In this document: one piece after another, positions 17,899 through 23,286 of the stretch
Layout: the number at the start of each line of letters is the position of its first letter
Numbering within the stretch: the stretch's first letter is position 1
Virus record (IMG/VR): IMGVR_UViG_2541047692_000014
Source: a virus
Lineage: Duplodnaviria; Heunggongvirae; Uroviricota; Caudoviricetes
Length of the DNA stretch: 29,480 nt
Reading direction: 5' to 3' (one strand)
Position numbers and translations under genes: made by a program
The notes under the pieces: generated by a model
The model's database searches: none
The model's input: only the letters and a program-made list of their open reading frames with translations
What the model was told of the DNA's origin: nothing

Positions 17899-18807
17899 AT
17901 GCCGATTATCGACCTGAACCAGCTACCCGCACCGGATGTGGTCGAGGAGCTGGACTTTGAAACCATTCTTGCCGAACGCAAGGCGACACTGATTTCCCTT
18001 TACCCGGAAGACCAGCAGGAGGCGGTTGCCCGTACCCTGACGCTGGAATCTGAGCCTCTCGTCAAACTGCTGGAGGAAAATGCTTATCGTGAGCTTATCT
18101 GGCGTCAGCGTGTGAATGAGGCCGCACGGGCAGTGATGCTGGCCTGTGCCGCCGGTAATGACCTTGATGTGATTGGTGCCAATTACAACACCACGCGCCT
18201 GATTATCACCCCGGCAGATGATTCGACTATCCCGCCGACACCGGCAGTGATGGAATCTGACACGGATTATCGTCTGCGTATTCAGCAGGCGTTTGAAGGT
18301 TTAAGCGTCGCCGGGTCAGTGGGAGCCTATCAGTATCATGGTCGTAGTGCCGACGGGCGTGTCGCGGATATCTCTGTTACCAGTCCGTCTCCGGCCTGCG
18401 TCACCATCTCTGTGCTGTCACGTGAAAATAACGGTGTCGCATCCGAAGACCTGCTGGCGGTGGTGCGTAACGCCCTTAATGGCGAGGACGTCAGGCCGGT
18501 GGCCGACCGCGTGACCGTGCAGTCTGCCGCCATCGTTGAATACCAGATAAACGCCACGCTTTACCTTTACCCTGGTCCCGAAAGCGAACCCATACGCGCT
18601 GCCGCCGTGAAAAAACTGGAAGCGTACATCACGGCACAGCACCGGCTGGGGCGTGACATCCGTCTGTCTGCCATTTATGCCGCTTTGCATGTGGAAGGCG
18701 TGCAGCGTGTCGAACTGGCTGCACCGCTGGCCGATATCGTGCTCAACAGTACGCAGGCGTCTTTCTGTACCGAATACAGCGTCGTGACCGGAGGCTCGGA
18801 TGAGTGA
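17899..18807 (+). CDS. J: Baseplate protein J, 302 aa
   Basis: 302-aa ORF at the P2 gpJ position and length. Confidence 0.9.
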   Translation: MPIIDLNQLPAPDVVEELDFETILAERKATLISLYPEDQQEAVARTLTLESEPLVKLLEENAYRELIWRQRVNEAARAVMLACAAGNDLDVIGANYNTTRLIITPADDSTIPPTPAVMESDTDYRLRIQQAFEGLSVAGSVGAYQYHGRSADGRVADISVTSPSPACVTISVLSRENNGVASEDLLAVVRNALNGEDVRPVADRVTVQSAAIVEYQINATLYLYPGPESEPIRAAAVKKLEAYITAQHRLGRDIRLSAIYAALHVEGVQRVELAAPLADIVLNSTQASFCTEYSVVTGGSDE

Positions 18808-19330
18808 TTCGCGACTACTGCCGACCGGCTCATCACCGCTTGAAGTCGCCGCCGCAAAAGCCTGTGCGGAAATTGAAAAAACACCGGTCAGTATTCGTGA
18901 GCTGTGGAACCCGGACTCCTGTCCGGCAAATCTGCTGCCGTGGCTGGCGTGGGCGTTTTCGGTCGACAGATGGGATGAAAAGTGGCCGGAAGCGACAAAA
19001 CGCGCTGTTATCCGCGATGCCTATTTCATCCACTGTCATAAAGGCACTATAGGTGCAATCCGGCGTGTGGTGGAGCCGCTGGGCTATCTCATCAACGTGA
19101 CGGAGTGGTGGGAAACCAGTGACCCGCCGGGCACCTTCCGGCTTGATATTGGTGTACTGGAAAGTGGCATCACAGAGGCAATGTATCAGGAAATGGAACG
19201 GCTGATTGCTGATGCCAAACCTGCAAGCCGCCACCTTATTGGCCTGAACATTACCCGGGACATTCCCGGCTACCTGTTCGCCGGTGGTGTGGCTTACGAC
19301 GGCGATGTAATTACGGTTTACCCCGGATAA
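18800..19330 (+). CDS. I: Baseplate/tail protein I, 176 aa
   Basis: 176-aa ORF overlapping the J 3' end, the P2 gpI length. Confidence 0.9.
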   Translation: MSDSRLLPTGSSPLEVAAAKACAEIEKTPVSIRELWNPDSCPANLLPWLAWAFSVDRWDEKWPEATKRAVIRDAYFIHCHKGTIGAIRRVVEPLGYLINVTEWWETSDPPGTFRLDIGVLESGITEAMYQEMERLIADAKPASRHLIGLNITRDIPGYLFAGGVAYDGDVITVYPG

Positions 19331-19340
19331 GTGAGGAATA

Positions 19341-21431
19341 ATGAGCACAAAATTCAAAACCGTTATCACCACTGCCGGTGCAGCAAAGCTGGCAGCGGCA
19401 ACCGCGCCGGGAGGGCGGAAGGTCAACATTACCACGATGGCCGTCGGGGATGGCGGTGGTAAATTGCCTGTCCCGGATGCCGGACAGACCGGGCTTATCC
19501 ATGAAGTCTGGCGACATGCGCTGAACAAAATCAGCCAGGACAAACGAAACAGTAATTATATTATCGCAGAGCTGGTTATTCCGCCGGAGGTGGGCGGTTT
19601 CTGGATGCGTGAGCTTGGCCTGTACGATGATGCGGGAACGTTAATTGCCGTGGCGAACATGGCCGAAAGTTATAAGCCTGCCCTTGCCGAAGGCTCAGGG
19701 CGTTCGCAGACCTGCCGCATGGTCATCATCGTCAGCAGTGTGGCCTCAGTGGCGCTGACCATTGACACCACAACGGTGATGGCGACGCAGGATTACGTTG
19801 ATGACAAAATTGCAGAGCACGAACAGTCACGACGTCACCCGGACGCCTCGCTGACCGAAAAAGGTTTTACTCAGTTAAGCAGTGCGACCAACAGTACGTC
19901 TGAAACACTGGCCGCAACGCCGAAAGCGGTAAAGGCCGCGTATGACCTGGCTAACGGGAAATATACCGCACAGGACGCCACCACAGCGCGAAAAGGCCTT
20001 GTCCAGCTCAGTAGTGCCACCAACAGCACGTCTGAAACGCTCGCCGCAACACCAAAAGCGGTAAAAGCAGCATATGACCTTGCTAACGGGAAATATACAG
20101 CACAGGACGCCACCACAGCGCGAAAAGGCCTTGTCCAGCTCAGTAGCGCCACCAACAGCGACTCTGAAACGCTTGCGGCAACGCCAAAGGCGGTTAAGAC
20201 AGCGTATGACCTTGCTAACGGGAAATACACTGCACAGGATGCCACCACGGCGCGAAAAGGTCTTGTTCAGCTCAGTAGCGCAACCAACAGTGATTCTGAA
20301 ACGCTGGCTGCAACACCAAAAGCGGTGAAGTCTGCCTATGACAATGCTGAAAAACGTCTTCAGAAAGATCAGAACGGTGCGGATATTCCGGGAAAGGATA
20401 CCTTCACGAAAAATATCGGTGCCTGTCGTGCTTATAGCGGCGCTTTGAGCACTGAAGCCGGAAACTGGACAACCGCTCAGTTTATTGAATGGCTGGATTC
20501 CCGTGGTGCATTTAATCATCCGTACTGGATGTGCAAAGGCTCCTGGTCATATGCAAATAACAAAATCATTACGGATACCGGATGTGGTGATATCCACCTG
20601 GCTGGTTGTGTCGTCGAGGTCATGGGAACTAAATCTGCAATCACTATCCGAGTGACCACGCCGACAACATCAAGCGGTGGCGGTACAACCAGCGCACAAT
20701 TCACTTACATTAATCATGGGGACGGCTACTCCCCCGGCTGGCGTCGTGACTGGAATCGTCAGGGCGACGCAATGACCGGAACGATTAATCAGGACGGCGG
20801 AAGCCAGAATACCTATATGTCTACGGCCTTATGTTCAGGCACCAGAGGCGGCAAAAAATATCTCAGAAAGTTTCGTGGTGGAGAAGGAGACACTATCTGG
20901 CATGAAACAGTACAGGGCGGGGTAGTTCGCTGGGCGACAGGTAATACTGATGCTCAGGAAGAATTATCACTAAGCTCCGCTTATGGTCTCCGTTCAAGAG
21001 GTGAAATTACATCACTCAGTGCTAATGGTCTGCGCATTGCTTATGGCAATTATGGATTCTTTATCAGGAATGATGGCGGCAGCACATATTTAATGCTGAC
21101 GGCCTCTGGCGATAAATTTGGAACATGGAACGGTTTAAGACCGCTGACTATCAATAACGCCAATGGCGGAGTGTCAATGGGGCATGGCCTGAGTGTTACT
21201 GGACGTGTTAACCCATCAGATTACGGAAATTTTGATTCCCGCTATGTGAAAGATATTCGCCTGGGTACGCGTGTTGTTCAGACCATGCAAAAAGGCGTGA
21301 TGTATGAGAAAGCAGGGCATGCAATTACAGGACTTGGCATTGTCGGCGAAGTTGATGGCGATGATCCGGCAGTATTCAGACCAATACAAAAATACATTAA
21401 TGGCACATGGTATAACGTCGCACAGGTGTAA
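19341..21431 (+). CDS. H: Tail fibre protein H, 696 aa, with internal tandem 40-aa repeats
   Basis: Long ORF between I and the fibre assembly gene G; 696 aa against about 669 for P2 H, so the fibre differs in length from P2. Confidence 0.9.
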   Translation: MSTKFKTVITTAGAAKLAAATAPGGRKVNITTMAVGDGGGKLPVPDAGQTGLIHEVWRHALNKISQDKRNSNYIIAELVIPPEVGGFWMRELGLYDDAGTLIAVANMAESYKPALAEGSGRSQTCRMVIIVSSVASVALTIDTTTVMATQDYVDDKIAEHEQSRRHPDASLTEKGFTQLSSATNSTSETLAATPKAVKAAYDLANGKYTAQDATTARKGLVQLSSATNSTSETLAATPKAVKAAYDLANGKYTAQDATTARKGLVQLSSATNSDSETLAATPKAVKTAYDLANGKYTAQDATTARKGLVQLSSATNSDSETLAATPKAVKSAYDNAEKRLQKDQNGADIPGKDTFTKNIGACRAYSGALSTEAGNWTTAQFIEWLDSRGAFNHPYWMCKGSWSYANNKIITDTGCGDIHLAGCVVEVMGTKSAITIRVTTPTTSSGGGTTSAQFTYINHGDGYSPGWRRDWNRQGDAMTGTINQDGGSQNTYMSTALCSGTRGGKKYLRKFRGGEGDTIWHETVQGGVVRWATGNTDAQEELSLSSAYGLRSRGEITSLSANGLRIAYGNYGFFIRNDGGSTYLMLTASGDKFGTWNGLRPLTINNANGGVSMGHGLSVTGRVNPSDYGNFDSRYVKDIRLGTRVVQTMQKGVMYEKAGHAITGLGIVGEVDGDDPAVFRPIQKYINGTWYNVAQV
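19860..20339 (+). repeat. Four tandem, in-frame 120-nt (40-aa) repeats inside tail fibre gene H
   Basis: Protein repeats of the form KGLVQLSSATNS(T/D)SETLAATPKAVKxAYDLANGKYTAQDATTAR. Nucleotide copies differ mainly at synonymous positions (e.g. ACGCCGAAAGCGGTAAAGGCC versus ACACCAAAAGCGGTAAAAGCA). Confidence 0.85.
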
Positions 21432-21434
21432 TTT

Positions 21435-21962
21435 ATGCAGCATTTAAAAAATATTACTGCGGGTAATCCCAAAACTGTTGCCCAATATCAACTGACAAAA
21501 AATTTTGATGTTATCTGGTTATGGTCTGAAGACGGAAAAAACTGGTATGAGGAAGTAAGTAATTTTCAGGAAGACACGATAAAGATTGTTTACGACGAGA
21601 ATAATATAATTGTCGGCATCACCAGAGATGCTTCAACGCTTAACCCTGAAGGTTTTAGCGTTGCCGAGGTTCCTGATATTACCGCCAACCGACGTGCTGA
21701 TGACTCAGGTAAATGGATGTTTAAGGATGGTGCCGTGATTAAGCGGATTTATACGGCAGACGAACAGCAGCAACTGGCAGAATCACAAAAGGCAACTTTA
21801 CTTTCCGAAGCTGAATCCGTGATTTTGCCGCTGGAGCGCGCTGTCAGGCTGAATATGGCAACAGATGAGGAGCGCCGCCGACTGGAAGCATGGGAACGCT
21901 ACAGCGTTCTGGTCAGTCGTGTGGATACTGCAAATCCTGAATGGCCGGAAATACCGCAATAA
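21435..21962 (+). CDS. G: Tail fibre assembly (chaperone) protein G, 175 aa
   Basis: 175-aa ORF immediately after H, the P2 gpG length. Confidence 0.9.
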
Positions 21963-21971
21963 ACACAAGGC

Positions 21972-21995
21972 GGGCTTATTGTCCGCTTTTTCTTT
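21972..21995 (+). terminator. Putative terminator after the V-W-J-I-H-G operon
   Basis: GCGGGC-TTATT-GTCCGC hairpin (one G-T wobble) followed by TTTTTCTTT, 10 nt after the G stop. Confidence 0.45.
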
Positions 21996-22095
21996 ATCGG
22001 TGGTTGTGCTGTCGATTAGCCAACCGGGACAAATAGCCTGACATCTCCGGCACAACTGAAAATACCACTCACCCATTAACCACGGAGTTAAACGG

Positions 22096-23286
22096 ATGAG
22101 TGATTATCATCACGGTGTGCAGGTGCTGGAGATTAACGACGGCACCCGCGTCATTTCCACCGTATCCACCGCCATTGTCGGCATGGTCTGCACGGCCAGC
22201 GATGCAGATGCGGAAACCTTCCCCCTCAATAAACCGGTGCTGATTACCAATGTGCAGAGCGCAATTGCAAAGGCCGGTAAAAAAGGCACGCTGGCGGCAT
22301 CGTTGCAGGCCATCGCCGACCAGTCAAAACCGGTCACCGTTGTCGTGCGCGTGGAAGACGGCACCGGCGACGACGAAGAAACGAAACTCGCGCAGACCGT
22401 TTCCAATATCATCGGCACCACTGACGAAAACGGTCAGTACACCGGACTGAAAGCCCTGCTGGCGGCGGAATCGGTAACCGGTGTTAAACCGCGTATTCTC
22501 GGTGTGCCGGGGCTGGATACCAAAGAGGTGGCTGTTGCACTGGCATCAGTCTGTCAGAAGCTGCGCGCTTTCGGGTATATCAGCGCATGGGGCTGTAAGA
22601 CCATTTCCGAGGTGAAAGCTTACCGCCAGAATTTCAGCCAGCGTGAGCTGATGGTCATCTGGCCGGATTTCCTCGCATGGGATACGGTCACCAGTACCAC
22701 CGCCACCGCGTATGCCACCGCCCGTGCGCTGGGGCTGCGTGCCAAAATCGACCAGGAGCAGGGATGGCATAAAACGCTGTCCAACGTCGGGGTGAACGGT
22801 GTTACCGGCATCAGCGCATCTGTATTCTGGGATTTGCAGGAGTCCGGCACCGATGCTGACCTGCTGAACGAGTCAGGCGTCACAACGCTGATTCGCCGCG
22901 ACGGTTTCCGCTTCTGGGGTAACCGTACCTGCTCTGATGACCCGCTGTTCCTCTTTGAAAACTACACCCGCACCGCGCAGGTGCTGGCTGACACGATGGC
23001 TGAGGCGCACATGTGGGCGGTGGACAAGCCCATCACCGCAACGCTGATTCGCGACATCGTTGACGGCATCAATGCCAAATTCCGTGAGCTGAAAACAAAC
23101 GGCTATATCGTGGATGCGACCTGCTGGTTCAGCGAAGAATCCAACGATGCGGAAACCCTCAAGGCCGGAAAACTGTATATCGACTACGACTATACCCCGG
23201 TGCCTCCTCTTGAAAACCTGACCCTGCGCCAGCGTATCACCGATAAATATCTGGCAAATCTGGTCACCTCGGTTAACAGCAATTAA
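22096..23286 (+). CDS. FI: Contractile tail sheath protein, 396 aa
   Basis: 396-aa ORF with SD (ACGGAGTTAAACGG-ATG), the P2 gpFI length, first gene of the tail operon. Confidence 0.92.
   Translation: MSDYHHGVQVLEINDGTRVISTVSTAIVGMVCTASDADAETFPLNKPVLITNVQSAIAKAGKKGTLAASLQAIADQSKPVTVVVRVEDGTGDDEETKLAQTVSNIIGTTDENGQYTGLKALLAAESVTGVKPRILGVPGLDTKEVAVALASVCQKLRAFGYISAWGCKTISEVKAYRQNFSQRELMVIWPDFLAWDTVTSTTATAYATARALGLRAKIDQEQGWHKTLSNVGVNGVTGISASVFWDLQESGTDADLLNESGVTTLIRRDGFRFWGNRTCSDDPLFLFENYTRTAQVLADTMAEAHMWAVDKPITATLIRDIVDGINAKFRELKTNGYIVDATCWFSEESNDAETLKAGKLYIDYDYTPVPPLENLTLRQRITDKYLANLVTSVNSN

Follow-up and report, generated by a model that had tools for sequence, protein, structure and literature searches.

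The subject of this paper is a tandem repeat array in the tail fibre gene H of a P2-like (Peduovirus) phage genome or prophage, carried on a stretch of 29,480 nucleotides (IMG/VR record IMGVR_UViG_2541047692_000014; Caudoviricetes) that is called the window throughout. The region consists of four copies of a known repeat, PF03406 (Phage_fiber_2, phage tail fibre repeat), and the feature is real but ordinary. The units differ from each other mainly at silent sites. This divergence reflects old paralogues under strong purifying selection, and the adaptive reading, in which the divergence serves to suppress recombination, is not supported. Taken as a whole, the account in which old PF03406 paralogues are maintained by purifying selection, change in number by 132-bp steps, form segments of the fibre shaft and end in a last unit that acts as a joint is considered highly probable.

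Divergence at silent sites and age of the repeat units

The first-pass annotation of the window had described repeat units that are nearly identical as protein and differ at many third codon positions, and this description is borne out. Pairs of units are 86-95% identical as protein and 78-88% identical as DNA, with 10-17 synonymous against 1-4 non-synonymous codon differences per pair, and third codon positions hold 84 of the 109 pairwise nucleotide differences (77%). The statement that selection acts on the protein to keep the units alike was also correct: estimates by the method of Nei and Gojobori (NG86) between units, with dS of 0.52-1.15 and dN/dS of 0.015-0.13, indicate strong purifying selection. 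The substitution spectrum is ordinary, comprising 70 transitions and 39 transversions with every class present. The array was also considered as a possible target of a diversity-generating retroelement. This candidate was rejected, as the differences are silent, lie at third positions in 77% of cases, are not adenine-specific and are dominated by transitions.

Each unit has its own positional counterpart in other phages. These counterparts are 93-100% identical in nucleotide sequence, as against 80-88% between paralogues within one array, and the duplications are therefore old and predate the spread of these phages. The units are thus old paralogues whose protein has been kept by purifying selection and whose silent sites have drifted. 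In distant species the same pattern can be seen, with conserved protein and a DNA identity of 62-94% within arrays. The silent divergence would accordingly be a passive outcome of age and purifying selection.

It had further been claimed that nucleotide divergence limits recombinational collapse of the array. As an evolutionary explanation, this means that synonymous differences were selected since they cut homologous recombination and thereby guard the array. The four-unit state does persist in lineages that are 3-7% apart in DNA, with unit alleles combined in many ways, and in-register identical runs within single units are short (9-24 bp). Among 243 adjacent unit pairs in relatives only 3 are at least 99% identical, and therefore freshly duplicated identical units are rare or short-lived. 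However, if silent change had been actively favoured, codons should be shared between units no more often than in independent draws from the codon usage. Paralogous units have the same codon at 57-71% of conserved residues, compared to the 38% expected under independent choice (simulated P <=0.016 in all six unit pairs for sharing of the observed extent by chance). Sharing above the independent expectation indicates that divergence is below saturation and has not been pushed beyond it.

Other observations point in the same direction. A 47-bp perfect direct repeat survives at a spacing of 132 bp in the array, and it is longer than the minimum of ~25 bp that Shen and Huang reportedly gave in 1986 for RecA-dependent exchange in E. 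coli. Overall, similarity is greater between neighbouring units than between distant ones. In relatives, exact losses of units (P37, fiAA91-ss), gains of units (five-unit arrays) and fresh duplications can all be found. Moreover, any old duplicate under purifying selection is expected to show the same pattern. Considering the codon sharing, the 47-bp repeat, the gains and losses and the old counterparts together, the claim of protection against collapse is not supported, and selection for such protection is judged very unlikely. Copy number is quite stable within lineages, and the divergence may well lower the rate of unit loss as a side effect; there is no evidence of selection for that.

Anatomy of the repeat array

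The array in H is far beyond chance. Tandem Repeats Finder reported one strong array at 19887-20342, with a period of 132, 3.5 copies, 87% matches and a score of 665. The Pfam model of PF03406 matched four stretches of the protein with an E-value of 1.2e-81 and 268.5 bits, against a gathering cut-off of 22, and the units lie in tandem in tail fibre protein H within a J-I-H-G context. They start at H residues 174, 218, 262 and 306, which gives a period of 132 nt or 44 aa, and the array is composed of 3 complete units of 44 aa and a fourth of 29 aa, that is, 3.66 units. The first-pass annotation had reported four tandem repeats of 40 aa at 19860-20339. This location is correct to within 3 nt; the unit length is not, and the figure of 40 aa arose because 160 aa had been divided by 4. 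The Pfam model itself spans 42 positions, compared to the real period of 44 aa in P2-type H, and nothing essential differs between the two.

Each unit can be divided into an invariant core of 29 aa (KG-x-x-QLSSATNS-x-SETLAATPKAVK-x-AYD) and a linker of 15 aa. The start of the array is fixed at residue 174, immediately after the attachment domain. At the other end, the last unit always stops after its core, at the start of the variable distal fibre, and the junction always follows KAVK.

Copy number among relatives and dynamics of the units

Units were counted with a hidden Markov model (HMM) of the core in the window, 10 phage records, 80 IMG/VR loci and 23 loci of other species. In the window and in 112 of the 113 related loci, the first unit begins at residue 173-174 and the spacing of units is exactly 44 aa, the exception being a fragment of 49 aa without a unit (L113). 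Among the 90 close relatives, one, two, three, four and five units were counted at 1, 17, 5, 54 and 13 loci, respectively; the corresponding numbers for 22 other Enterobacterales species are 7, 8, 6, 1 and 0 loci. P2 gpH has two units, of which the second is the cut one, and this is a minority state among the 90 close relatives. Three units exist in P37, fiAA91-ss, STYP1 and PSP3, and four in vB_YpM_46, 12474II, P2_DC1 and P2_2H4. Three E. coli prophage loci in IMG/VR (L039, L079 and L088) likewise encode an H of 696 aa with the four-unit array of the window. It follows that the copy number of the window does differ from that of P2, as had been noted, with four units against two. A strain-specific repeat state, by comparison, is refuted, as four units are the mode (54 of the 90 close relatives).

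Relatives combine unit alleles in mosaic arrays such as 1-2-3-4, 1-2-b-4 and 1-i-3-4. Variants in copy number are exact to the unit: P37 can be written as 1-2-4 and fiAA91-ss as 1-3-4, and the five-unit arrays contain one additional unit of type 2 or 3. In register plots, the left register gives way to the right one at a single point, which falls in the conserved stretch where units meet, and copy number changes in steps of 132 bp. Adjacent units are 100% identical in one relative (L037) and 99.2% identical in two more (L072 and L038), which indicates recent duplication or conversion. Such changes by 132-bp steps would arise by unequal homologous recombination or by replication slippage between units.

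The nearest phages illustrate these relationships. vB_YpM_46 has the same four-unit array and is 97% identical in nucleotides to the window over the first 1862 nt; its H is 764 aa long, with a distal part 68 aa longer than that of the window. GMS190 is 98% identical to the window over the distal part. P37, which like vB_YpM_46 and GMS190 is a Peduovirus that plates on Yersinia, is without unit 3.

Some individual loci are unusual. In two IMG/VR loci (L067 and L085) the H frames are closed prematurely, after 289 and 322 aa, within a three-unit array or shortly behind it; these loci may be pseudogenes, or the repeats may have led to errors in sequencing or assembly. A third IMG/VR locus (L087) has a P2-type distal module behind one unit, in an H of 751 aa whose part after the repeat is unusually long (553 aa). 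Two records titled Vagococcus sp. WN89Y (L100) and Chryseobacterium sp. 18061 (L106) bear an enterobacterial P2-like H. The N-terminal domain of these two is ~75% identical in amino acids, and unit 1 of L106 is 98% identical in nucleotides to that of Scandinavium manionii. Both assemblies are probably contaminated or mislabelled.

Distal module and mosaic structure of gene H

As in many Peduovirus genomes, H is mosaic; its three parts are a P2-type N-terminus, a non-P2 centre and P2-type last ~76 aa. Residues 334-620 showed no similarity to P2 H, and this part is not a distal domain of the P2 type. It begins with a module related to the Mu G(-) fibre S', which is also matched by P7 Sv, and residues 547-623 match structures of Mu S (5yvq) and T4 gp34. 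The 8ju3 entry, to which the module was compared, comes from Mori et al. 2024, as cited in PMC11915804. The P2-type tip differs from that of P2 mainly in one short stretch, TMQKGVM versus LMARGGR.

The full protein has 696 aa, compared to 669 aa in P2, as had been stated correctly. After the last KAVK, 366 aa remain in the window and 427 aa in P2. The excess of 27 aa is explained by a gain of 88 aa (two units) and a deficit of 61 aa (a different, shorter distal part). The earlier remark that the length difference hints at changed receptor specificity was right in that the lengths differ, but its argument was incomplete in treating as one change what is the sum of these two. Any change in receptor specificity would stem from the Mu S'-like module and not from the repeats.

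DNA of a Mu-type phage matches the window at ~73% from query position 132 onward, that is, from ~20255, where unit 4 starts. Mu S/S' (PDB 5yvq, 9ki1 and 8ju3) and P1/P7 S have one PF03406 unit directly before the variable distal part; Mu thus has one unit, compared to four in H of the window, and its N-terminal attachment domain is unrelated. The start of Mu-type homology at unit 4 and the single unit of Mu S at the same place suggest that the cut last unit is a common exchange joint. The conserved core of this unit would allow distal modules to be swapped between unrelated phages, the module in the window being the Mu S'-like one. The exchange of distal fibre modules between unrelated phages was reportedly already the message of Haggard-Ljungquist et al. 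in 1992.

These data also allow a reading in which the array was put together from imported pieces and at least unit 4 came in alongside the distal module, both donated by a fibre gene of Mu-like or lambdoid type; on this view, some of the silent differences would go back to separate origins. Apart from the Mu-type match that runs from unit 4 into the distal module and the unit of Mu S at the joint, a lambdoid side tail fibre gene (PhiR68_2) matches units 3-4 and the module at 77%, and the arrays of relatives are mosaics of many unit alleles. On the other hand, every close P2-like phage has counterparts of units 1-3, irrespective of its distal module, and the Mu identity is only ~73%, so any transfer must be old. 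An origin by import is possible but seems rather less probable than its absence, and it complements the explanation by old paralogues under purifying selection rather than competing with it.

Mu swaps its distal parts by DNA inversion, and no sign of such sites was seen here. No inverted repeats above chance quality were found in 18800-22600, and a gix sequence had no match at <=3 mismatches. An invertible tail fibre segment of the Mu G or P1 C type was rejected, given the lack of inverted repeats and of a gix-like site and the position of FI directly after G.

Copy number is associated with the type of distal module. P2-type modules follow two units in 17 of 17 cases, Mu S'-like modules four units in 22 of 24, modules of the DKERFL type four units in 17 of 18, and modules of the DKRLFLRNIGATNSTT type five units in 10 of 11. 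Linked inheritance is enough to account for this pattern. A functional explanation would be that unit number is matched to the distal module, for example through the fibre length needed for anchor docking on the sheath. It would agree with the tracking of module type by copy number, with the presence of the most units next to a module that is among the shortest (327-335 aa), and with the anchoring of the fibre to the sheath in P2 (preprint, 10.64898/2026.09.14.750843). However, total H lengths range over 642-816 aa, and the idea that distal modules strictly offset the length added by units was discarded as unsupported; one of the four-unit classes has the shortest distal part of all (312 aa). 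There are also exceptions of three and five units inside module classes, and of the three-unit cases at least P37 and fiAA91-ss have been isolated as phages. The association can be explained without selection, through common descent and through recombination in register where arrays are equally long. Functional matching is therefore regarded as unlikely. A joint reading, with unit number co-adapted to the distal module for sheath docking or receptor reach and silent divergence selected to stabilise that number, is compatible with the near-fixed copy number per module class and the rarity of identical adjacent units, and it is given even less credence.

Structure of the unit and weight of the evidence

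The P2 virion has been described in a cryo-EM preprint, in which gpH is a 54-nm homotrimer of eight domains; its adaptor domain is immediately followed by 'two repeat domains (RBPseg-D19)', which are trimer predictions fitted to a low-resolution map (10.64898/2026.09.14.750843). D19 is linked by RBPseg to parts of the T4 short tail fibre (PMC12143355). P2 gpH shares with H of the window the N-terminal domain, the array start at 174, units 1 and 2, the tip type and the gene order; it differs in having two units instead of four, and residues 334-620 of the window protein form an unrelated module. By this comparison, each unit of the homotrimeric gpH would fold as a small segment of its own in the proximal shaft, and gain or loss of units would lengthen or shorten the fibre and leave the attachment domain and tip untouched.

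Several points weigh against the account of old paralogues, stepwise change and shaft segments. The relatives used for counting are not an independent sample, as several loci are near-duplicates. The near-fixed copy number within each distal-module class could reflect functional tuning and not mere linkage. No resolved structure holding the unit was found beyond the Mu S/S' chains, and the equation of one unit with one shaft segment leans on the preprint's trimer predictions in its low-resolution map. Finally, monomer AlphaFold2 models of the repeat region had a mean predicted local distance difference test score (pLDDT) of only 43 from the single sequence and 38 with a 38-sequence alignment; low values are as expected when an obligate trimer is modelled as a monomer. 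No solved structure was found for the N-terminal domain either, and in the Mu virion paper the fibre was built for its N-terminus only.

Antisense open reading frames

Two antisense open reading frames (ORFs) of 214 and 125 aa with start codons overlap the array, and the first-pass annotation had ascribed such frames to the repeats. This is confirmed, as both are shadows of the codon usage of H. The 214-aa frame is open because only the sense codons TTA, CTA and TCA would close it: H has one TTA at 19875, and the next closing codon is not reached until 20547. Its peptide varies freely between units. The apparent conservation of the 125-aa peptide is trivial, since its wobble positions are shared with those of H, and the frame is broken by a median of 3 stops in the 90 related arrays, with one stop or none in 16 only. 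It is almost inconceivable that these ORFs encode real proteins.

Breadth of the repeat family

The PF03406 family (InterPro IPR005068) has the same core as the window units, and in many enterobacterial phage tail fibres it is found in tandem and in variable number. It corresponds to the Pf2 domain of lambda Stf and of the collagen-like fibres of Stx prophages (PMC3368898), and E. coli fibres of the StfR type have this domain as well. A profile of the four window units matched 3975 protein clusters (50% identity) among 1.84 billion representatives, with up to 12-19 matched stretches per protein. The best matches are fibres with 11-12 units, in which the core recurs at alternating spacings of 44 and 63 aa. 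At the DNA level, the unit is 73-83% identical in lambda stf (orf-401), P1 and many Stx-phage fibres.

Three of the homologues (P0001, P0002 and P0003) have 7-12 units in a higher-order repeat, where the 44-aa unit alternates with a unit of 63 aa with the linker AAGKAPSSHTHPWNQITGVPTASLTA; one of these fibres ends in a P2-type distal module. In addition, most homologues of the repeat region (P0151-P0268) are 'partial' tail fibre proteins that end at contig ends, which suggests that the repeats break short-read assemblies. Several homologues are misnamed 'short-chain fatty acid transporter, partial'.

Gene H and its setting

As seen in Table 1, the array lies between a conserved N-terminal domain and the exchangeable distal part of H. 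Window DNA is 95-97% identical to the Yersinia phages GMS190, vB_YpM_50 and P37 and to the E. coli phage Wphi, and GMS190 is 97% identical over 95% of the first 25 kb. Gene H is 90-98% identical in nucleotides to Peduovirus H genes. An identical H was not found in any complete E. coli genome, where the top match was 97.8%. Residues 1-173 are nearly identical to residues 1-173 of P2 H, and this domain has 98-100% amino acid identity across the 80 IMG/VR loci. The gene order of P2 (V-W-J-I, H, G, FI) is kept according to the ORF list, and H thus has both the N-terminus and the context of a P2-type gpH.

Table 1. Features of tail fibre gene H and its repeat array in the window
Feature	Position	Strand	Evidence or remark
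Tail fibre gene H, 696 aa	19341..21431	+	ORF list; Pfam PF12571, PF03406 x4, PF21446
N-terminal baseplate-attachment (adaptor) domain, aa 1-173, conserved	19341..19859	+	PF12571 (aa 1-151), E 2e-58
Repeat unit 1, 44 aa, KGFTQLSSATNSTSETLAATPKAVKAAYDLANGKYTAQDATTAR	19860-19991	+	99% nt identity to P2 unit 1
Repeat unit 2, 44 aa	19992-20123	+	98-100% nt identity to unit 2 of YpM46, P2DC1 and P37
Repeat unit 3, 44 aa	20124-20255	+	93-97% nt identity to fiAA91-ss unit 2 and to unit 3 of four-unit phages
Repeat unit 4, first 29 aa only, KGLVQLSSATNSDSETLAATPKAVKSAYD, then different sequence	20256-20342	+	Junction to exchangeable distal module
47-bp perfect direct repeat, copy 1, across unit 1/2 boundary	19968-20014	.	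Self-comparison at 132-bp offset
47-bp perfect direct repeat, copy 2, across unit 2/3 boundary	20100-20146	.	Self-comparison at 132-bp offset
Distal module, aa 334-487, related to Mu G(-) fibre S'	20340..20801	+	phmmer against PDB 8ju3, E 1.5e-92
gp34-type trimerisation / beta-helical domain, aa 540-604	20958..21152	+	PF21446, E 1.4e-23
P2-type C-terminal fibre tip, aa 621-696	21201..21428	+	BLASTP to P2 H C-terminus, ~80% identical
Tail fibre assembly chaperone G, 175 aa	21435..21962	+	90% aa identity to P2 gpG
Antisense shadow ORF, 214 aa, codon-aligned antisense frame, not a gene	19875-20519	-	ORF list
Antisense shadow ORF, 125 aa, wobble positions coincide with those of H, not a gene	19871-20248	-	ORF list

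The sheath gene FI stands directly after G (21962-22096), and the non-essential cargo gene fun(Z) of P2, which lies on the opposite strand, is absent; it is likewise missing from P37, STYP1 and PSP3. The window, with 29,480 bp compared to 29,462 bp for GMS190, may be a complete small Peduovirus genome. A long minus-strand ORF at its edge (1-1011) is a putative integrase, judged from position alone.

Implications

The repeat family was already known, also from P2 gpH, and mosaic exchange of distal fibre modules is likewise well established; the array of the window has little importance beyond correct annotation. The repeats probably account for many 'partial' and some misnamed tail fibre entries in databases. 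For P2-type fibres, the true period is 44 aa, the start at residue 174 and the exit after KAVK are fixed, and the exit offers a natural fusion site for chimeric P2 fibres. The natural copy number, from one to five in unit-exact steps, implies that the length of these fibres can probably be adjusted by whole units.

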